Assembly: GCA_049643885.1 (NCBI GenBank)
Contig: JBARQV010000015.1
Span: 11,430 to 75,429 of the forward strand
Direction of reading: 5' to 3'
From: Candidatus Omnitrophota bacterium
GTDB taxonomy: Bacteria; Omnitrophota; Gorgyraeia; Tantalellales; Tantalellaceae
Length of the DNA: 64,000 bases
Part shown: positions 16,163 through 44,400 of the stretch, piece by piece
Numbering within the stretch: the first letter of the stretch is position 1
Layout: every line of letters starts with the position of its first letter
Notes under the pieces: model-generated
Told to the model about the DNA's origin: nothing
Database searches by the model: none
The model's input: the letters and a program-made list of their open reading frames with translations, nothing else
Translations under genes and position numbers: made by a program

Positions 16163-17140
16163 ATGAGACGCTACATACTTAAACGACTACTACTCATCAT
16201 CCCGATGCTGTTCGGGATATCCATCCTGCTTTTTGTCGTCATGCATCTTGCTCCGGGAGACCCCGCAAGCCTGAGGTACGGTCTTAATCCGGAAGTATCG
16301 GAAAGCGCCAGGGAGAATTTCAGCCGGTTGTACAACCTGGACAAACCGGTCCTGGTCCAGTATCTCCTGTGGCTGAAAAGATTGGTGTCGCTTGATTTCG
16401 GCAAATCTTTTATCGACGACCAACCGGTCATAATGAAAATAGCTTCCCGGCTTCCCGCGACGCTACTCCTGCAGATAGTCTCTCTTATCGTGATCTTTTG
16501 CCTTGCCCTTCCCATAGGGATAATAAGCGCGGTGAAACGGAACTCTGTTTTTGACAGGGTCATGACGGTAGTCGTCTTTATCGGTTATGCCATGCCGACT
16601 TTCTGGCTGGCCCTTTTGCTGATATTTTTCTTCGGGTTCAAGCTGCAGTGGTTTCCCGTCTCCGGGATGTCTCCCTGGTATACCCAGTATCTCGATGTGT
16701 TCGGCAAGATCAGGGACCTTGCCTGGCATATGGTTTTGCCGGTGGTGACTACGGCTTTCGGGGGACTGGCGGCTTTGTCCAGGTATTCAAGATCAAGCAT
16801 GATAGAGGTCATGCAGGAAAATTATATCCTCACGGCCAGGGCCAAGGGCCTAACGGAAAGAAGGATAATCATGGTCCATGCTCTCAGGAACGCGCTGTTG
16901 CCGATCGTGACCATAATGGGCCTTACTCTTCCCGGGCTGATATCAGGCAGTTTTATTTTCGAGACGATATTTGCCTGGCCGGGCATGGGCCGGCTGGGGT
17001 ATGAGGCGATCATGAATTATGATTATCCGGTGGTGATGGGGGTAGGGTTTATCGCGACTTTCCTCACGCTCTTGGGGATATTCCTGTCGGACATGACGTA
17101 CGCGATCGTCGATCCGAGGATCAGGTACGAAGGTAGATGA
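16163..17140 (+). CDS. oppB: Peptide ABC transporter permease
   Basis: BPD_transp_1 EAA-like region ...LTARAKGLTERRIIMVHALRNA. Confidence 0.9.
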   Translation: MRRYILKRLLLIIPMLFGISILLFVVMHLAPGDPASLRYGLNPEVSESARENFSRLYNLDKPVLVQYLLWLKRLVSLDFGKSFIDDQPVIMKIASRLPATLLLQIVSLIVIFCLALPIGIISAVKRNSVFDRVMTVVVFIGYAMPTFWLALLLIFFFGFKLQWFPVSGMSPWYTQYLDVFGKIRDLAWHMVLPVVTTAFGGLAALSRYSRSSMIEVMQENYILTARAKGLTERRIIMVHALRNALLPIVTIMGLTLPGLISGSFIFETIFAWPGMGRLGYEAIMNYDYPVVMGVGFIATFLTLLGIFLSDMTYAIVDPRIRYEGR

Positions 17141-17366: not shown

Positions 17367-18182
17367 ATGAACAAGCGACTCTTATTCGGGGTAATGATAG
17401 TAGTGGTGATGGCGCTGGTCGCGGGCCTCGCGCCTTTTATCGCTACCCATGACCCCCTGGAGATGGACCTTTCGCCGGAAGCGAGGCTCCATGCCCCTTC
17501 CGTCGGGCATCTTTTCGGGACAGACAGCCTGGGCCGCGACGTGTTCAGCCGGATGGTCTACGGGACGCGTATATCTTTAAGCGTCGGGTTCATCGCCGTT
17601 TTCATATCCCTGGTCATAGGCATTTTTCTTGGGGGATTGAGCGGTTATTACGGGAAATGGGTAGATACCGTTATCATGCGGCTTGTCGAGATCATGTATT
17701 GTTTCCCAACGTTTTTTCTGATAATGATGGTCATCACTTTCCTGGGGCCGAGTGTCATCAACGTGATGGTCGTTATCGGGATAACCAGCTGGGCGGGTCT
17801 GTGCAGACTTGTCCGCGCGGAATTTTTGACGCTCAGGGAAAGGGATTTCGTGCATTCGGCAAGGGTCCAGGGTGTTTCGGATATGCGTATCATATTCAGG
17901 CATATTCTTCCCAATGCCATGGCCCCGGTATACGTGAGCGCCACTCTTAGTGTAGGCGCGGCGATACTGGTCGAGAGCGCGCTGTCTTTTCTGGGTCTGG
18001 GTGTGCAGATACCCACTCCGAGTTGGGGGAATATCCTTGCCAACGGGAAAAATTATATAGATTACGCCTGGTGGCTTACTCTTTTCCCCGGCCTGGCGAT
18101 ACTTGTGACCGTTCTGAGCTTTAATTTGATAGGCGAAAGCATGAGAGAAAGGCTGGACCCAAGGCTCAGGGAGAGGAAATAA
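17367..18182 (+). CDS. oppC: Peptide ABC transporter permease
   Basis: N-terminal TM and a BPD_transp_1 domain. The ATG at 17367 is preferred over the track's upstream start. Confidence 0.9.
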   Translation: MNKRLLFGVMIVVVMALVAGLAPFIATHDPLEMDLSPEARLHAPSVGHLFGTDSLGRDVFSRMVYGTRISLSVGFIAVFISLVIGIFLGGLSGYYGKWVDTVIMRLVEIMYCFPTFFLIMMVITFLGPSVINVMVVIGITSWAGLCRLVRAEFLTLRERDFVHSARVQGVSDMRIIFRHILPNAMAPVYVSATLSVGAAILVESALSFLGLGVQIPTPSWGNILANGKNYIDYAWWLTLFPGLAILVTVLSFNLIGESMRERLDPRLRERK

Positions 18183-18183
18183 C

Positions 18184-18232
18184 CCCACACTTCCGTGTGG
18201 GGAATTGATACTACAGGCGGTAGCCTGTAGAG
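18184..18232 (+). repeat. Double-hairpin intergenic repeat, copy 2
   Basis: CCCCACACTTCCGTGTGGGGAATTGATACTACAGGCGGTAGCCTGTAGAGG. Its 3' AGAGG is 6 nt upstream of the oppD ATG. Confidence 0.9.
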
Positions 18233-18238
18233 GAGAAA

Positions 18239-19775: not shown

Positions 19776-19844
19776 AAGATCGGCGATGTATGGCTTGTTT
19801 CTGCCGGGAACATCCGATCCCCTCGTTATTTGCGACTCAGCATT

Positions 19845-20197
19845 GCGAAAACAATAAAATCCTTCCCAACCTAAAATTTGGAAATGGGTCCCTTTGATCT
19901 TATTGTTTTTGCAATGCCGATTCCGCAGAATAACTAGGCGTTGTATGCAATGCAACGCCTAGTCAGGAAAGGGTAAATATCTATGATGGCGAATGCATGC
20001 CTGACGGACCATTACAAAAATTCAGCTTTTCCGGATATTTTAAGCTGAGGTTATCATGGCTATATACAATGCGTAGGCATGGCAACTGTCCGAGCCCCGA
20101 GCATTCCTGTAGCGAGGGGCGAGTTTTGCCATGTCAGCTTGAAATGCCCGGAAAAGCGTTAAGAATTTTTGTCGGGACGGAAGGCATGCATTCGCCG
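19845..20197 (+). repeat. Composite structured repeat, copy A: short palindromic arm module (19845-19912) plus ~210-bp core (about 19990-20197) bounded by inverted termini GGCGAATGCATGCC / GGCATGCATTCGCC
   Basis: About 88% identity to copies B and C. The ORF track's 68-aa ORF inside it is not conserved in copy B. Confidence 0.85.
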
Positions 20198-20285
20198 TTA
20201 TAGACATTTAACATAAGCAACGGGAAAAATGATGTCGCCGATAGAACAGCTCAAACTTCCGCTGGTCTTTGCGGTTTAAAAGGCG

Positions 20286-20338: not shown

Positions 20339-21619
20339 ATGGGATATACGATAACGGAAAAGATCCTGCTTTCGCACGCGATCGGGGTCAAAGGGATCGC
20401 CCCGGGCGATTTCATAAGAACCAGGGTCGACATGTGCCTTGGGAACGATATCACCAGCCCCATCGCTATAAAAGAATTTTGCGAGCTGGGGGTGGATAAG
20501 GTTTTTAACCAGAACAAGATAGCTCTGGTGCCGGACCATTTCGTACCCGCCAAGGACATGAAAAGCGCTAACCAGGCCGCGTCTCTCAAAAAATTCGCGC
20601 AAAAATACGGTATCACTAATTATTTCGAAGTCGGGCGAATGGGTATTGAACACGTCTTACTGCCTGAAAGAGGGCTTGTCCTTCCTGGCGCTCTCATCAT
20701 AGGGGCTGATTCCCATACTTGCACCCATGGTGCGCTTGGCGCTTTCGCCACGGGTGTGGGAAGCACGGACCTTGCCTACGCCATGGCATTTGGAGAATGC
20801 TGGTTCAGGGTCCCCGAGACGATAAAGATCGTCTTCACGGGAAAGCCCAGGAAATGGGTCGGCGGCAAGGACTTGATACTGCACGTAATATCCGATATCG
20901 GTGTCTCCGGCGCCCTTTACAAGACCCTGGAGTTTACGGGCGATACCATTTCTGAGCTTTCCATGGATGACCGGTTCTCTATCTGCAATATGGCAATTGA
21001 AGCCGGGGCGAAGAACGGAATAGTCGAACCGGACAAAACGACTGAAAGATACGTCAAGACGGCGGTAAGAAAATATAAGCCCCCGCGTAAATCGTTTAAA
21101 ATGATAAAAAGCGATAAAGATGCCGTGTATGCCGACGTCAGGGAATATAATGTTTCCAAACTTGAACCGGTAGTTGCCAAGCCCCATCTGCCGTCAAACG
21201 GTGTTCCGGTAAGTACACTGAAGGATGTCAAAGTAGATCAGGTATTCATCGGATCATGCACCAACGGGAGGATCTCGGACCTCAAAACCGCGGCGTCCAT
21301 TCTTAAGAACAGAAAGGTCCATCCCCAGACGCGTTTGATCGTGATACCGGCCACGCAAGCGATCTACATGGAAGCTGTGAGGGAAGGGTATGTAGATGTA
21401 TTTATCCGCGCCGGAGGGGTCTTCTGCACGCCGACCTGCGGGCCGTGTTTGGGTGGTCACATGGGGATCCTGTCCGAGGGAGAGGTCGCGGTAGCGACTA
21501 CGAACCGCAATTTTGTCGGACGGATGGGACATCCGAAAAGTTTTGTTTATCTGTCCAACCCGGCTATCGCGGCCGCGAGCGCGGTCAAGGGAAAGATAGC
21601 GCATCCGTCGGATCTGTGA
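20339..21619 (+). CDS. leuC: 3-isopropylmalate dehydratase large subunit (aconitase family)
   Basis: Aconitase-family Cys ligands (GSCTNGR, CGPCLG) in the archaeal-type short LeuC architecture. Confidence 0.85.
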   Translation: MGYTITEKILLSHAIGVKGIAPGDFIRTRVDMCLGNDITSPIAIKEFCELGVDKVFNQNKIALVPDHFVPAKDMKSANQAASLKKFAQKYGITNYFEVGRMGIEHVLLPERGLVLPGALIIGADSHTCTHGALGAFATGVGSTDLAYAMAFGECWFRVPETIKIVFTGKPRKWVGGKDLILHVISDIGVSGALYKTLEFTGDTISELSMDDRFSICNMAIEAGAKNGIVEPDKTTERYVKTAVRKYKPPRKSFKMIKSDKDAVYADVREYNVSKLEPVVAKPHLPSNGVPVSTLKDVKVDQVFIGSCTNGRISDLKTAASILKNRKVHPQTRLIVIPATQAIYMEAVREGYVDVFIRAGGVFCTPTCGPCLGGHMGILSEGEVAVATTNRNFVGRMGHPKSFVYLSNPAIAAASAVKGKIAHPSDL

Positions 21620-21669
21620 CCCCACACTTCCGTGTGGGGAATGATACTACAGGCGGAAGCCTGTAGAGG
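21620..21669 (+). repeat. Double-hairpin intergenic repeat, copy 3
   Basis: CCCCACACTTCCGTGTGGGGAATGATACTACAGGCGGAAGCCTGTAGAGG sits between leuC and leuD. A second AGAGG follows before the ATG. Confidence 0.9.
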
Positions 21670-21684
21670 AAAAAGAGGAAAAAC

Positions 21685-22281
21685 ATGAAACTCAAAGGCA
21701 AAATCCATAAGTTCGGTAATAACATAAACACTGATGAGATAATTCCCGCCCGTTATCTCAATACTTGTGATCCGGGTGAACTGGCGAAACACTGTATGGA
21801 AGACGCTGCCCCGCAATTCGCTAAAAACGTCCAGGAAGGGGATATAATCGTCGCGGGCGAAAATTTCGGATGCGGTTCCAGCCGGGAGCACGCACCGATC
21901 GCCATAAAAGCTTCCGGGGTTTCCTGTGTAGTGGCCAAAAGTTTCGCCAGGATATTTTACAGGAACGCCATTAATATCGGCCTTCCGATCTTCACGAGTC
22001 CGGAAGCCGTGAAGGACCTGAAAAACAACGACACGGCTGAAGTGGACGCCACCAAGGGGACTGTCACCAAATCCGGGAGAAAGAAAGCTTATGATGCGGA
22101 AGTGTTCCCTGAATTCATAAAAGAGATCATCAGGAGCGGAGGGTTGATGGCTTACGCGAAAAAGATGGGACCCGCGGAAGAGCCAAAACCCGTTAAAAGA
22201 AAGAAGAAAGCTGTGCAAAGAAAGAAGATCGTCAAAAGAAAGGCCAAAACTACCAAGAAGACAAAGAAGCACAAGAAATGA
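21685..22281 (+). CDS. leuD: 3-isopropylmalate dehydratase small subunit with a ~35-aa lysine-rich C-terminal tail
   Basis: LeuD core (GENFGCGSSREHAP) followed by the tail ...EEPKPVKRKKKAVQRKKIVKRKAKTTKKTKKHKK. Confidence 0.85.
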   Translation: MKLKGKIHKFGNNINTDEIIPARYLNTCDPGELAKHCMEDAAPQFAKNVQEGDIIVAGENFGCGSSREHAPIAIKASGVSCVVAKSFARIFYRNAINIGLPIFTSPEAVKDLKNNDTAEVDATKGTVTKSGRKKAYDAEVFPEFIKEIIRSGGLMAYAKKMGPAEEPKPVKRKKKAVQRKKIVKRKAKTTKKTKKHKK

Positions 22282-22283
22282 CA

Positions 22284-22369
22284 AATATGTCATCCCGGAC
22301 GGCCGAAAGGCCGATCCGAGATCAAATAATAATTTTTATGTGATCCCCGCTTTCGCGGGGATGACATAC
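22284..22369 (+). repeat. TIR element family 2, copy 1 (AATATGTCATCCCGG ... CCCCGCTTTCGCGGGGATGACATAC)
   Basis: Perfect outer inverted repeat ATGTCATCCC/GGGATGACAT with an inner hairpin. It lies between leuD and leuB. Confidence 0.8.
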
Positions 22370-22390
22370 TATTAAGTAATAGGAGGATAA

Positions 22391-23443
22391 ATGTACAAGA
22401 TAGCGGTTTTGCCGGGGGACGGTACAGGACCAGAGGTCATAAGGGAAGGGCTTAAGGTCTTGGACGCGGTCGCGGAAAAGACGGGTTTCAAATATGAAAA
22501 GATAATGTATGACCTGGGAGGCGAGCGCTACAAAAAAACGGGTGAAGTGCTCCCGGGCAGCGTCCTTGAGGAGATAAAGACGGCTGACGCTATCTATCTG
22601 GGAGCTATAGGCCATCCGGACGTGAAGCCCGGCATCCTGGAGAAGGGGCTTCTTTTGAGCTTAAGGTTCGCGCTTGACCAATATATAAATCTGCGCCCCA
22701 TTAAATTATATCCGGGCGTGGACTGTCCCCTGAAAGATAAGGGCCCTGAGGACATCGACTTTGTTGTCGTGCGCGAGAATACCGAAGGCCTTTACACGGG
22801 AACGGGCGGCCTGCTGAAAGAAGGCACTAAGGACGAGGTGGCCATACAGACTTCGGTGAATACTTATAAAGGCGTGGAAAGATGCCTCAGGTACGCGTTT
22901 GAATACGCTAAGAAACGCAACAAGGATAAACAGCTCACGCTTGTCGGCAAGACGAATGTCTTGACCTACGCGTTCGGTTTGTGGGAGAGGACTTTTGAAA
23001 AAATGTCTGAAGATTACCCGGACATCAAAACGGGCTACGCTCATGTCGATGCTACCTGCATGTGGATGGTGAAAAATCCGGAATGGTTTGACGTCATCGT
23101 GACGGATAACATGTTCGGTGACATCATCACAGATCTTGGCGCCATGATCCAGGGCGGTATGGGTATAGCCGCTGGCGGAAACATCAACCCGGAAGGCGTT
23201 TCCATGTTTGAACCGATCGGAGGCTCGGCGCCCAAGTATACGGGGAAGAACGTCATCAATCCGCTCGCCGCGATCTGTGCCGGTGGTATGATGCTGGAGG
23301 TGCTCGGCGAGCAGAAAGCCGCGGATCTCGTGGAGAAGGCGGTGATGTCGGTCACTGTCAAAAAGCTGAAGAGTCTTTCGGCCGGCAAGATGGGATATTC
23401 GACGCAGGAAGTCGGGGATCTCGTAGTGGAGGCGCTGGGATAG
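22391..23443 (+). CDS. leuB: 3-isopropylmalate dehydrogenase
   Basis: MYKIAVLPGDGTGPEV; NMFGDIITD; isocitrate/isopropylmalate dehydrogenase fold. Confidence 0.9.
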   Translation: MYKIAVLPGDGTGPEVIREGLKVLDAVAEKTGFKYEKIMYDLGGERYKKTGEVLPGSVLEEIKTADAIYLGAIGHPDVKPGILEKGLLLSLRFALDQYINLRPIKLYPGVDCPLKDKGPEDIDFVVVRENTEGLYTGTGGLLKEGTKDEVAIQTSVNTYKGVERCLRYAFEYAKKRNKDKQLTLVGKTNVLTYAFGLWERTFEKMSEDYPDIKTGYAHVDATCMWMVKNPEWFDVIVTDNMFGDIITDLGAMIQGGMGIAAGGNINPEGVSMFEPIGGSAPKYTGKNVINPLAAICAGGMMLEVLGEQKAADLVEKAVMSVTVKKLKSLSAGKMGYSTQEVGDLVVEALG

Positions 23444-23529
23444 AGCTTGCATCTTTTCGGGACAGGTTTCCTGTAGTAGTGTAAACTGTCGGCTGAAACC
23501 AGTCCCGCTATTTTTATAAAGGATAATAA

Positions 23530-24576
23530 ATGATGAAGAAGAAAGCGAAATATAATGTTGGGATAATGGGCGTGACCGGTGCAGTCGGCGGCCAGTTTCT
23601 CTCGATACTGGAACAAAGGGACTTTCCGGTGGATGAGCTCCGTCCTCTGGCCAGCGAAAGGTCAAAAGGCAAAAAGGTAGTATTCCGCGGGCAAGAGATC
23701 GATGTGCAAATACTCGGCGAAGATTCGTTCGGAGGCATCGACATCGTCCTAGCCTCAGCGGGCGCCTCGCGGAGCAAGGAGTTTTTACCCCACGCGGTCC
23801 GGGCCGGTGCTGTCTGCGTAGACAATTCCAGCGCGTTCAGGATGGATAAAGATGTTCCTTTGGTCGTTCCGGAGGTCAATCCCCATGCCATAAGAGCGCA
23901 TCAAGGCATCATCGCAAATCCCAACTGCTCCACCATCCAGATGGTCCTCCCGTTGTGCGCTATCCATAAAGCCGCGTCGATCGAACGAGTGGTAGTTACC
24001 ACTTTTCAGTCGGTTTCGGGCGCCGGGCAGAAAAACATCCTAGAACTCGAAAGCCAGGCAGTGCACCTGGGCAATAAAAAGTCCCATTACGGTATCGGGG
24101 AACATACCGTTCCCCGGGAGATGGTTAAAGAGTTTGCACATCAGATCGCGTACAATCTCATACCCCATATCGATGTCTTCCAGGACAACCTTTATACCAA
24201 GGAAGAGATGAAGATGGTGAACGAGATCCGCAAGATCATGGAGATTCCGGATCTTGCCGTTACTGCTACCTGTGTCCGTGTTCCCGTTTATTACGCTCAT
24301 TCCGAAAGCGTGAACGTGGAGACCGGCAAGAAGCTCGGTCCAGGACAGGCCAAAGATATCCTTGAAAAATTTCCCGGAATAAAGGTCGTTGACGACCCGG
24401 CAGGTTCAAAGTATCCCATGCCTATTTTCGTGGAAGGTAGGGATGAAGTCTTTGTCGGAAGGATCAGGGAAGATGAGTCCGTCGAAAACGGCCTCAACAT
24501 GTGGGTCGTCGCGGACAACCTCAGAAAAGGCGCCGCCCTCAACGCCATACAGATCGCCGAACACCTTATCAAGTAA
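23530..24576 (+). CDS. asd: Aspartate-semialdehyde dehydrogenase
   Basis: GVTGAVGG; NPNCSTIQMV active-site cysteine motif. Confidence 0.9.
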   Translation: MMKKKAKYNVGIMGVTGAVGGQFLSILEQRDFPVDELRPLASERSKGKKVVFRGQEIDVQILGEDSFGGIDIVLASAGASRSKEFLPHAVRAGAVCVDNSSAFRMDKDVPLVVPEVNPHAIRAHQGIIANPNCSTIQMVLPLCAIHKAASIERVVVTTFQSVSGAGQKNILELESQAVHLGNKKSHYGIGEHTVPREMVKEFAHQIAYNLIPHIDVFQDNLYTKEEMKMVNEIRKIMEIPDLAVTATCVRVPVYYAHSESVNVETGKKLGPGQAKDILEKFPGIKVVDDPAGSKYPMPIFVEGRDEVFVGRIREDESVENGLNMWVVADNLRKGAALNAIQIAEHLIK

Positions 24577-24664
24577 TATGTCATCCCGGACGAGCCCGCA
24601 GGGATCGAGCCGGGACCACATAATATTTTTATTTGATCCCGGCTTTTACCGGGATGACATACAT
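24576..24664 (+). repeat. TIR element family 2, copy 2
   Basis: AATATGTCATCCCGGACGAGCC...GATCCCGGCTTTTACCGGGATGACATAC. The inner stem sequence differs from copy 1 (GCCGGG vs GCGGGG) but pairing is kept. The element ends at the truA start codon. Confidence 0.8.
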
Positions 24665-25405
24665 ATGCGCAACATAAAGCTTACCATTTCTTACGACGGG
24701 ACCGATTTTAACGGTTGGCAGGTCCAGCCTAACGGCAGGACAGTCCAGGAAGAGGTAGAAAAAGCGATCGGCAAAGTTTTCGGCAAGCCTCACCGTTTAT
24801 ACGCGGCCAGCCGGACAGATGCCGGTGTCCATGCCGAAAGACAAGTCGCGAATTTCAAGACCGGTCTTTCTTCGACCATACCCACTGGCAAGATACCTGC
24901 CGCGTTGAACGCTTATCTTCCCGATGAGGTAGCCATAAAAAGTGCCGAGGAAGTCCCGCCGGGATTCCATTCCCGTTTTGACGCGAAAAGCAAGCATTAC
25001 AGGTATTACATTATCAACAGCAGGCAGCGCGACCCTTTCGGTGAAAAATACACCTGGCGGGTGCCGTATGAACTTGATGTCTCTTTGATGAAAAAAGAAG
25101 CGAAAGTGCTCGTAGGCAGGCATGATTTCAAGTCTTTCCAGGCTAAAGACAAAAGAGAAAGGCATTCCGTGCGCAGGATATTCTATATCAACGTGGCGAA
25201 AAAAAAGTCGTTCCTGACGATAGACATTGAAGCTGACGGTTTTCTTTTTAATATGGTCCGCAACATCATGGGTACCCTGGTGGATATCGGCAGGGGATAC
25301 CTTCCCGGGGGAAGCATGCGGAGCATACTCAAGAAAAAGGACCGGACCCAGGCCGGCCCCACCGCTCCCCCTAAAGGCCTTTTTCTTGTCGATGTAAAAT
25401 ATTGA
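24665..25405 (+). CDS. truA: tRNA pseudouridine(38-40) synthase
   Basis: MRNIKLTISYDGTDFNGWQVQ...RTDAGVHA (catalytic Asp). The track start at 24389 reads through the asd 3' end and the repeat. Confidence 0.9.
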   Translation: MRNIKLTISYDGTDFNGWQVQPNGRTVQEEVEKAIGKVFGKPHRLYAASRTDAGVHAERQVANFKTGLSSTIPTGKIPAALNAYLPDEVAIKSAEEVPPGFHSRFDAKSKHYRYYIINSRQRDPFGEKYTWRVPYELDVSLMKKEAKVLVGRHDFKSFQAKDKRERHSVRRIFYINVAKKKSFLTIDIEADGFLFNMVRNIMGTLVDIGRGYLPGGSMRSILKKKDRTQAGPTAPPKGLFLVDVKY

Positions 25406-27015: not shown

Positions 27016-27492
27016 TGCAAAAACAGTAAAATCTTTCCCAACCAAATTTTTTAACGGCATTTTTCTAACTTTCAAAGGGCGTAAAAGAAACTCGCCCCCG
27101 CTGCTTTGCTTTGCGAATCCAAGCGACGGGGGTTCAAACAACTTTTACGCTTTTTTCCTTCAAAAGTTAGAAAAATGCCTAAAATTTGTAAATGGGGCCC
27201 TTTAATTTTATTGTTTTTGCGAATAGATGAGCAGTTTCTTAACTATGATTATTTTCAAACACATGGCAAATGTCACCGCCGGCGAATATATGCCTGACGG
27301 ACCATTTCAAAAATTTAGTTTTTCCGGGCATTTTAAGCTGAAGTTGTCGTGGCTACTAAACATGTGTAGGCATGGCAAATGTCCGAGCCCCGAGTATTTC
27401 TATTAACGAGGGGCGAGTTTTGCCATGTCAGTTTAAAATGTCCCGAAAAGCGTTAAGAATTTTTGTCGGGCCGGAAGGCATATATCCGCCGG
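27016..27492 (+). repeat. Composite structured repeat, copy B: ~205-bp near-palindromic arm module (27016-27220) plus ~210-bp core (27283-27492) with inverted termini CCGGCGAATATATGCC / GGCATATATCCGCCGG
   Basis: Aligned by eye to copies A and C. The reading frame that is open in copy A is closed here by TAA. Confidence 0.85.
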
Positions 27493-27543
27493 TCTACTGT
27501 CACGCGACTTATGTTCGCTTCGCTTCATAAGTTACGGTTTCAC

Positions 27544-30723: not shown

Positions 30724-30730
30724 CGTAACA

Positions 30731-30782
30731 CCCCACACTTCCGTGTGGGGAATGATACTATACAGGCGGAAGCCTGTAGAGG
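30731..30782 (+). repeat. Double-hairpin intergenic repeat, copy 4
   Basis: CCCCACACTTCCGTGTGGGGAATGATACTATACAGGCGGAAGCCTGTAGAGG. The AGAGG is 6 nt upstream of the argD ATG. Confidence 0.9.
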
Positions 30783-30788
30783 TGACAT

Positions 30789-43853: not shown

Positions 43854-43913
43854 TCATCAGAATTGCTTTCTGCAAAAACAACAAAATCCTTCTGTTTACC
43901 TTAAATGTCTTTC

Positions 43914-44349
43914 CGGCGAATATATGCCTTTCGTCCCGACAAAAATTCTTAACGCTTTTCGGAACATTTTAAACTGACATGGCAAAACTCGCCCCTCGTT
44001 ACAGGAATACTCGGGGCTCGGACAGTTGCCATGCCTACGCATGTTTAATAGCCATGACAACTTCAGCTTAAAATGCCCGGGAAAAGCTAAATTTTTGCAA
44101 TGGTCCGTCAGGCATATATTCACCGGCAGTGACATTTGCTATATCTACCAGCAAAAACAATAAAGTCAAAGGGACCCATTTCCAAATTTTAGGTATTTTT
44201 ATAACTTTCGAAGGGAAAAAGCGTAAAAGCCTGTTTGAGCCCCCGTCGCTTTGCGAAGCAAAACGACGGGGGCGAGTTCTTTTACGCCCTTTGAAAGTTA
44301 GAAAAATACCGTTAAAAAATTTGGTTGGGAAAGATTTTATTGTTTTTGC
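43914..44349 (-). repeat. Composite structured repeat, copy C (inverted orientation): core 43914-44126, near-perfect ~200-bp palindrome 44150-44349
   Basis: Reverse complement aligns with copies A and B. Central hairpin CCCCCGTCG-ctttgcgaagcaaaa-CGACGGGGG. Confidence 0.85.
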
Positions 44350-44400
44350 AGAGTTATTCATTCTGACACTGTATGCTTTCCGACATGTCCCTGATACCCC

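Follow-up and report, generated by a model that had tools for sequence, protein, structure and literature searches.

Head-to-head dimers of TGTC-tagged hairpins at two junctions of an Omnitrophota leuCDB-asd-truA operon: probable members of the CGTC/Ssn repeat class

The 64,000-nt stretch analysed here (contig JBARQV010000015.1 of the Candidatus Omnitrophota assembly GCA_049643885.1, positions 11,430 to 75,429; hereafter the window) carries the operon leuC-leuD-leuB-asd-truA, in which two junctions hold a strongly structured element of about 87 bp: element 1 lies between leuD and leuB and element 2 between asd and truA. A reading made from the letters alone, without database searches, had located them at 22284-22369 and 24576-24664, coordinates that hold, and had called them a family with terminal inverted repeats. 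The locus raises three questions: what these elements are, how they came to lie in the operon, and whether they matter as DNA or as RNA. They are probably non-coding, non-autonomous repeats, each a head-to-head dimer of inverted repetitive extragenic palindromic (REP) hairpins; these belong to the CGTC/TGTC-tagged class, as does the Neisseria NTS or Ssn-related motif (SRM), and their units probably matter as single-stranded DNA (ssDNA). This kind of element is already described and widespread; it is here newly documented in Omnitrophota. The window sequence is also present in GCA_049644745.1 and several other assemblies.

Common to the two elements are AATATGTCATCCCGGACG on the 5′ side and GGGATGACATAC on the 3′ side; an alignment that takes in some of the flank gives 80% identity. 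The AT-rich internal block that had been noticed in both copies is indeed common to them (ATAAT(A)ATTTTTAT). The perfect terminal stem, previously given as 10 bp, proves a conservative figure: it extends over 11 bp in element 1 (TATGTCATCCC/GGGATGACATA) and 13 bp in element 2. The 3′ inner hairpin reads ATCCCCGC-TTTC-GCGGGGAT in element 1 and ATCCCGGC-TTTT-ACCGGGAT in element 2, a G/C swap that keeps the pairing. Each element contains four copies of a segment of about 12 nt in the order forward/reverse/forward/reverse and has two alternative folds, either two hairpins or one long three-way structure. Within the window the 12-mer ATGTCATCCCGG, with no mismatch allowed, is confined to the two elements. 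Look-alikes at 16199 and 30954 were considered as extra copies and ruled out, both being in coding sequence.

Each element resolves into a left and a right unit with the consensus TGTC + ATCCCSNN + loop + NNSGGGAY + C. All four units have the tag TGTC and a stem of 8 bp that opens with AT; the right units pair over all 8 bp (one with a T.G/C.A top pair) and the left units over 7 of the 8. The loops are 4 nt long in the right units (GAAA, AAAA) and 15 and 20 nt, with internal structure, in the left units. The tails CAA, CAC, CAC and CAA keep the first C of a CCA consensus. In both elements the tags stand outside, in head-to-head arrangement, around a spacer of 13-14 bp. Because the tags point outward, what had been taken for terminal inverted repeats is the outer arms of two REP-like hairpins. 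CGTC-tagged REPs carry the tag CGTC, often TGTC (variant CCTC), followed by an 8-9-bp stem that opens with an A-T and a T-A pair, a loop of 4-5 nt and an unpaired 3-nt tail with the consensus CCA (PMC3733652). The CGTC-1 family in particular is described with a tag that is often TGTC, an 8-bp stem opening with AT, a 4-nt loop and a 3-nt tail (PMC3733652). Such REPs occur mostly as head-to-head dimers with the tags outside and a spacer usually of 20-100 bp, near the 3′ end of the upstream open reading frame (ORF); a genome typically holds many copies, and no dedicated transposase was known for them (PMC3733652).

Both elements fold far better than shuffled controls. As RNA, the + strands reach -43.1 (element 1) and -45.7 kcal/mol (element 2) against about -20 for dinucleotide shuffles, with z-scores of -6.8 and -8.5 and none of 200 shuffles equally good; z-scores are similar for the - strands and with DNA parameters. 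The single units also fold as ssDNA under DNA parameters, with z-scores of -3.7 (left) and -7.7 (right) in element 1 and -5.0 (left) and -5.3 (right) in element 2. At the elements, Rfam gave nothing relevant at the gathering threshold or at E<=1, a tRNA/tmRNA scan gave none, and a terminator and promoter scan gave nothing on the + strand. In window 22277-22293, an ATGACA over the leuD stop is complementary to the TGTCAT of the left end of element 1; this pairing, probably due to chance, allows another small hairpin when a longer RNA is folded.

Far from being peculiar to these two sites, the outer termini recur widely. One genome per species was scanned with the pattern ATGTCATCCCSG-N45-75-GGGATGACAT, which requires the outer arms alone, and at least 111 genome stretches from many phyla matched, where about 4 are expected by chance (our own arithmetic). 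Among the matches listed, most are from Alphaproteobacteria, and the remainder include Gamma- and Betaproteobacteria, Bacteroidota, Omnitrophota, lineages of the candidate phyla radiation, Fibrobacter and others; the pattern is absent from viral contigs. In 162 of 192 halves the inner arms, which lie outside the search pattern, make 7 or all of the 8 pairs, compared with 23 of 192 after shuffling. A structural alignment of 97 distinct units has compensatory changes at all three variable stem positions, and the swap first noticed between elements 1 and 2, rightly taken there as conservation of pairing over sequence, falls at the main covarying position of the family (GC in 60, CG in 25 and UA in 4 of the 97). 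The covariation score is 0.285 compared with 0.082 in shuffles, is reached by none of 500 shuffles, and collapses when the partners are slid against each other. Fitting this alignment to the hairpin biases it towards pairing; the compensatory types are nonetheless plain in the raw sequences.

The tail is CCA in 44 of 80 family units. The spacers are wholly different between phyla, GC-rich in Alphaproteobacteria and AT-rich in Omnitrophota. What is conserved, on sequence comparison, is the single hairpin unit as a module and not the termini of some longer element. Copies lie preferentially near ORF 3′ ends: 54% are within 50 nt of one, compared with 20% for random positions. Elsewhere in Omnitrophota the units occur in varied intergenic contexts and in clusters, and across phyla they occur in either orientation. 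The left unit of element 1 (22287-22323) matches a copy from the alphaproteobacterium Rhodoblastus (L104 1612-1707) at all but 3 of 37 positions, 12 nt having been fixed by the search. This near-identity suggests either that the repeat passed between phyla or that very few sequences are permitted.

The same hairpin is known in Neisseria as the target of a nuclease. The Neisseria NTS is CGTCATTCCCGCGMAVGCGGGAATCYRG; it contains the dRS3 repeat and has been generalised as the SRM (PMC11893778). It is bound and cut, as ssDNA only and not as RNA, by SsnA, a 94-aa single-domain GIY-YIG nuclease whose gene is typically flanked by the motif (PMC11893778). Cutting depends most on the GTC before the palindrome and binding on the C that follows it, and the reverse strand of the motif is not cut (PMC11893778). 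In all four window units GTC stands directly 5′ and C directly 3′ of the palindrome, and the unit TGTCATCCCCGCGAAAGCGGGGATC is essentially one compensatory pair apart from the NTS, T:A there and C:G in the window.

Genes for such nucleases were sought with phmmer and a consensus query that was validated by 7984 PF01541 hits; it replaced two hand-written GIY-YIG regular expressions, which had matched none of the ORFs. The query recovers a very large family of ~95-aa GIY-YIG proteins, several of them from named Omnitrophota. In P0131 the residues Y7, Y18 and E65 have the same spacing as the catalytic Y6, Y17 and E64 of SsnA (PMC11893778). On the contigs of P0131 and P0156 (L122-L125, Omnitrophota) the GIY-YIG gene is bracketed by TGTC units with tags outward, and the unit that abuts the gene at L122 735-761, TGTCATCCCCGCGAAAGCGGGGATCCA, equals the right unit of element 1 in tag, stem and loop, the tail excepted. 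GIY-YIG genes at L132-L136 are also flanked by units with tags outward. In an alphaproteobacterium (L105) a GIY-YIG gene (PF01541, E 5e-14) has dimers on both sides. NCBIfam holds no model for the L105 protein, and a search of the PDB yielded distant UPF0213 structures alone and nothing named Ssn.

Several of these loci have features of their own. In L105 238-460 the GIY-YIG gene has an in-frame TAG before its conserved C-terminal NPxWxDL part, possibly a pseudogene or a sequencing error. A complete unit-GIY-YIG-unit cassette lies between ATP synthase genes in L132 1435-1818 and behaves like a small mobile cassette. At three loci (L122 1-3734, L125 1-6291, L137 1-5327) the hairpin-flanked gene adjoins a large serine recombinase, and in two of them the genes are named as Omnitrophota in NCBI. 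All three lie beside a MiaB-like radical SAM gene, and L125 and L137 additionally have a primase-polymerase and an HTH_17 protein. The serine recombinase loci look like an integrative element able to carry nuclease and repeats between genomes.

The elements entered the operon as insertions. Comparison loci were L118-L120, available as DNA and with 73-74% TruA identity, a fourth relative represented by the gene table alone of a JGI contig, and L121 with 84% TruA identity. Gene order in L118-L120 is the same as in the window. The distance from the asd stop to the truA ATG is 5, 9 and 13 nt in these three relatives and 4 nt in the fourth, compared with 88 nt in the window; leuD and leuB overlap by 4 nt (TAATG) in L120 and are separated by 29 and 31 nt in the other two and by 13 nt in the fourth, compared with 109 nt in the window. 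Given compact junctions and kept gene order in the relatives, both copies are therefore insertions into junctions of a conserved leuCDB-asd-truA operon, as whole dimers and without target duplication. A target-site duplication of 3-9 bp was found in none of 95 copies of the family, and the 2-bp excess in their flanks is a palindromic extension of the termini. L121 has an element at the same truA junction. Since this site is filled in L121 and empty in the 73-74% relatives, the truA insertion is older than the split of the window lineage from L121 and younger than the split from the 73-74% group. The L121 contig begins inside the element (L121 1-44), the assembly having broken at the repeat. 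In the right unit of this L121 element a structured loop of 18 nt takes the place of the 4 nt of the window copy; orthologous units that differ in this way indicate that loops change by insertion or replacement. A further side observation concerns the LeuD tail (window 22150-22281), which is lysine-rich (KKMGPAEEPKPVKRKKKAVQRKKIVKRKAKTTKKTKKHKK); it is a lineage feature, because the tails of L118-L120 are alike.

Element 2 fits closely between its two genes: 2 nt separate the asd stop from the TGTC tag, and 5 nt separate the complement of the tag from the truA ATG. The sequence-only reading had pointed to the lack of a conventional Shine-Dalgarno (SD) sequence at truA, which it associated with the element. 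No AGGAGG-like SD indeed precedes truA, while leuB retains AGGAGG; the element is not the cause, as the three element-free relatives L118-L120 have no SD before truA either; truA there begins 5-13 nt after the asd stop. Because of this, the missing SD is evidently ancestral and not an effect of the insertion, and truA, to judge from these relatives, was ancestrally coupled in translation to asd. The effect of the element is one of spacing. Once the RNA is folded, a single 13-bp helix has the asd stop at one end and the truA ATG at the other. A thermodynamic model of free RNA has positions -13 to -4 of truA, which are the 3′ arm of the terminal stem, paired with a probability near 1. When the asd stop region is masked, as by a terminating ribosome, the mean unpaired probability of truA -13 to +3 rises from 0.28 to 0.55 in the same model. 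A ribosome-dependent opening of the truA start is predicted by this model, which is no demonstration of function.

These properties invite the reading that the elements are primarily cis-acting RNA structures under selection for gene expression, acting as a stabiliser of the upstream mRNA and as a ribosome-opened switch that couples truA translation to asd. Both copies lie in an operon, on the sense strand and 2-6 nt after a stop codon; as RNA they fold with great stability; in the model the start region of truA is sequestered and partly released when the asd stop is occupied; and the element has been retained at the same junction in the relative with 84% TruA identity. The reading is nevertheless unlikely. 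In both imperfect stems the mismatch is C.A in the mRNA and a T.G wobble in the non-transcribed strand, the opposite of what selection on RNA predicts, although this counts two cases. The varied contexts and clusters of the units elsewhere in Omnitrophota, and their occurrence in either orientation across phyla, also speak against it, as do the relatives that do without the element and the lack of an Rfam family match at the elements. Moreover, SsnA binds ssDNA and not RNA (PMC11893778). The effects on the mRNA are most likely passive or mildly adaptive.

Mobilisation by the RAYT transposase is very improbable. In Pseudomonas and E. coli, REPINs are moved by RAYT, an IS200/IS605-like Y1 transposase, and they have the same overall design, two inverted REPs and a spacer foldable to one long hairpin (PMC3337134). 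However, the tag is TGTC and not GTAG or GTGG, Di Nocera et al. found no RAYT flanked by CGTC units (PMC3733652), and the gene found flanked by units here is a GIY-YIG nuclease, with no genome-wide RAYT search made.

The elements also resemble miniature inverted-repeat transposable elements, that is, deletion derivatives of an insertion sequence whose DDE transposase moves them by recognising their inverted ends. In favour of this are a length of ~87 bp, terminal inverted repeats of 11-13 bp, insertion between genes and empty sites in relatives. What stands of the first description is a real repeat family that is not due to chance; its termini, however, are not of the transposase type. The missing target-site duplication and the single-hairpin module, with spacers that differ completely between phyla, largely refute a DDE origin, which is scarcely credible; in addition, single units flank GIY-YIG genes, and no transposase recurred beside the copies, although the ORFs of the loci were queried with GIY-YIG alone and transposases were not systematically searched. 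Intrinsic terminators or attenuators within the operon can practically be set aside: four mutually complementary 12-nt segments do provide the alternative pairings 1:2/3:4 or 1:4/2:3, but no T-run follows either element, the + strand terminator scan is empty there, no leader peptide is present and the family occurs in all orientations.

The assignment to CGTC/TGTC-tagged, Ssn-type repeats has its own difficulties. The literal SRM string, HGTCWYN(0-2)YYVSBRHN(0-5)WNVSBRGN(0-2)RNCYNB, matches none of the four units; the mismatch falls at the first tail base (A, not Y), and the left-unit loops of 15 and 20 nt exceed the 0-5 allowed. The window, within which this genome is visible, contains two dimers and no GIY-YIG gene. 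The nuclease gene of this genome was not located, the five sampled GIY-YIG clusters (P0131, P0156, P0334, P0256, P0172) being from other assemblies, and the family recovered by the query is provisionally assigned to cd10448/Ssn by its size, residue spacing and REP-flanked architecture. Finally, since SsnA leaves the reverse strand of its motif uncut, it cannot by itself release a head-to-head dimer from a single strand. All of these points weigh against the assignment. With its last three positions removed, the SRM matches both right units, and with a longer loop allowed as well it matches all four; these relaxed forms have 5 and 9 matches in the window, compared with shuffle means of 0.75 and 2.6.

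If the elements are Ssn-type repeats, their main mode of action would most likely be at the ssDNA level, as nuclease substrates, by analogy with the Neisseria system. When a strand is unwound during replication, repair or DNA uptake, each unit would fold into a hairpin, and an Ssn-type nuclease encoded elsewhere in the genome would bind it and nick a few nucleotides 5′ of the tag, as extrapolated from work on N. meningitidis (PMC11893778). The head-to-head dimer would present one recognisable unit at each strand's own 5′ end; that the dimer is the unit of spread is a guess. On the mRNA the element is probably a passenger with a compact three-way fold. At asd-truA this fold would bring the asd stop and the truA start together, and a ribosome at the asd stop would open it; a refolded stop/start junction of this kind would explain why an insertion in a coupled junction is tolerated. 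A bolder proposal, which can be held only tentatively, is that the dimer is a mobile unit copied through an ssDNA intermediate by or with an Ssn-type GIY-YIG nuclease and spread between phyla on integrative elements, a GIY-YIG counterpart of RAYT/REPIN, and that insertions in coupled junctions survive by re-joining stop and start.

Omnitrophota is a phylum of small, probably host-dependent bacteria, and it is now added to the known range of the CGTC/Ssn repeat system. The clean filled and empty sites show that a dimer inserts as one unit without target duplication, which bears on how repeats with no known transposase multiply. The asd-truA junction is a concrete case of a structured insertion of ~87 nt in a translationally coupled junction and raises the question whether such repeats are tolerated, or exploited, through stop/start refolding. 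For annotation, repeats of this kind account for contig breaks at such sites, and spurious short ORFs may be called there. The coordinates of the elements, their parts and the adjoining gene ends are collected in Table 1.

Table 1. Elements 1 and 2, their hairpin units and the neighbouring gene signals (window coordinates)
Feature	Position	Strand	Description
leuD stop	22279-22281		TGA; flanks element 1
Element 1	22286..22368	.	leuD-leuB junction; head-to-head dimer (tags outward) of two TGTC-tagged REP hairpins; extended palindrome TATGTCAT...ATGACATA
Element 1, left REP unit	22288..22325	+	tail CAA
Left unit 1, tag	22288-22291		TGTC
Left unit 1, first arm	22292-22299		ATCCCGGA
Left unit 1, loop	22300-22314		15 nt, with inner hairpin GGCC-GAAA-GGCC
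Left unit 1, second arm	22315-22322		TCCGAGAT; one C.A mismatch
Element 1, AT-rich spacer	22326..22339		ATAATAATTTTTAT; ends complementary to the outer TATGT flanks
Element 1, right REP unit	22340..22366	-	TGTC, ATCCCCGC, GAAA, GCGGGGAT, CAC
leuB SD	22381-22386		flanks element 1
leuB ATG	22391		flanks element 1
asd stop	24574-24576		TAA
Element 2	24577..24661	.	head-to-head REP dimer filling the asd-truA junction; perfect 13-bp terminal stem TATGTCATCCCGG/CCGGGATGACATA
Element 2, left REP unit	24579..24619	+	tail CAC
Left unit 2, tag	24579-24582		TGTC
Left unit 2, first arm	24583-24589		ATCCCGG
Left unit 2, loop	24590-24609		20 nt, with inner hairpin
Left unit 2, second arm	24610-24616		CCGGGAC
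Element 2, AT-rich spacer	24620..24632		ATAATATTTTTAT
Element 2, right REP unit	24633..24659	-	TGTC, ATCCCGGT, AAAA, GCCGGGAT, CAA; top pair T.G on the - strand, C.A on the mRNA strand
truA	24665..25405	+	246 aa; ATG 24665

The window contains further repeats that are distinct from the two elements. A 54-nt repeat occurs at 2094-2147, 18181-18234, 21617-21670 and 30730-30783. It consists of two hairpins, CCCCACAC-TTCC-GTGTGGGG and CTACAGGC-GGAA-GCCTGTAG, of which the second has a GTAG motif, and it ends in AGGA; it may represent a GTAG-type REP family in the same genome. One copy fills the leuC-leuD junction, which measures 65 nt in the window compared with 13-26 nt in L118, L120 and the gene table of the JGI contig and 43 nt in L119. 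A longer repeat of ~370-480 bp with nested inverted repeats has three copies, one of them inverted (19844-20210, 27016-27496, 43869-44352), in enlarged intergenic regions such as those before leuC and after rpsI.

Among known systems, the CGTC-tagged head-to-head dimers (PMC3733652) share with the window elements the TGTC tag, the 8-bp stem starting with A-T and T-A, the 4-nt loop of the right units, the 3-nt tail and the outward tags, as well as complementary spacer ends and a place between co-directional genes, near where the upstream ORF ends. In contrast, Omnitrophota is absent from the five phyla listed in 2013, the window tails are CAC or CAA instead of CCA, the spacer is shorter than the 20-100 bp described, and the left units have an additional hairpin inside loops of 15-20 nt. 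Neisseria dRS3/NIME and Rickettsia RPE-4/RPE-6 belong to the same CGTC families according to Di Nocera et al., with a core of the type ATTCCC-N8-GGGAAT (PMC3733652). However, most of the Neisseria units form mosaic clusters and many of those in Rickettsia are intragenic, whereas the window has isolated dimers at intercistronic junctions.

The hairpin itself is nearly equal to that of the NTS/SRM, CGTCATTCCCGCG-MAV-GCGGGAATC compared with TGTCATCCCCGCG-AAA-GCGGGGATC, and the window units keep the bases on either side of the palindrome that are key for cutting and binding (PMC11893778). As with ssnA, GIY-YIG genes flanked by units are found in Omnitrophota too. The window tail, by contrast, breaks the literal SRM, no transformation role is known for Omnitrophota, and dimers as discrete inserted units are not discussed in that paper (PMC11893778). 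The REPIN-RAYT system differs in its GTAG tag and Y1 transposase, in the place of which stand TGTC and a small GIY-YIG nuclease, but it arrives at the same form: two inverted REPs and a spacer that make a hairpin-forming insertion unit of ~90 nt (Bertels and Rainey, 2011).

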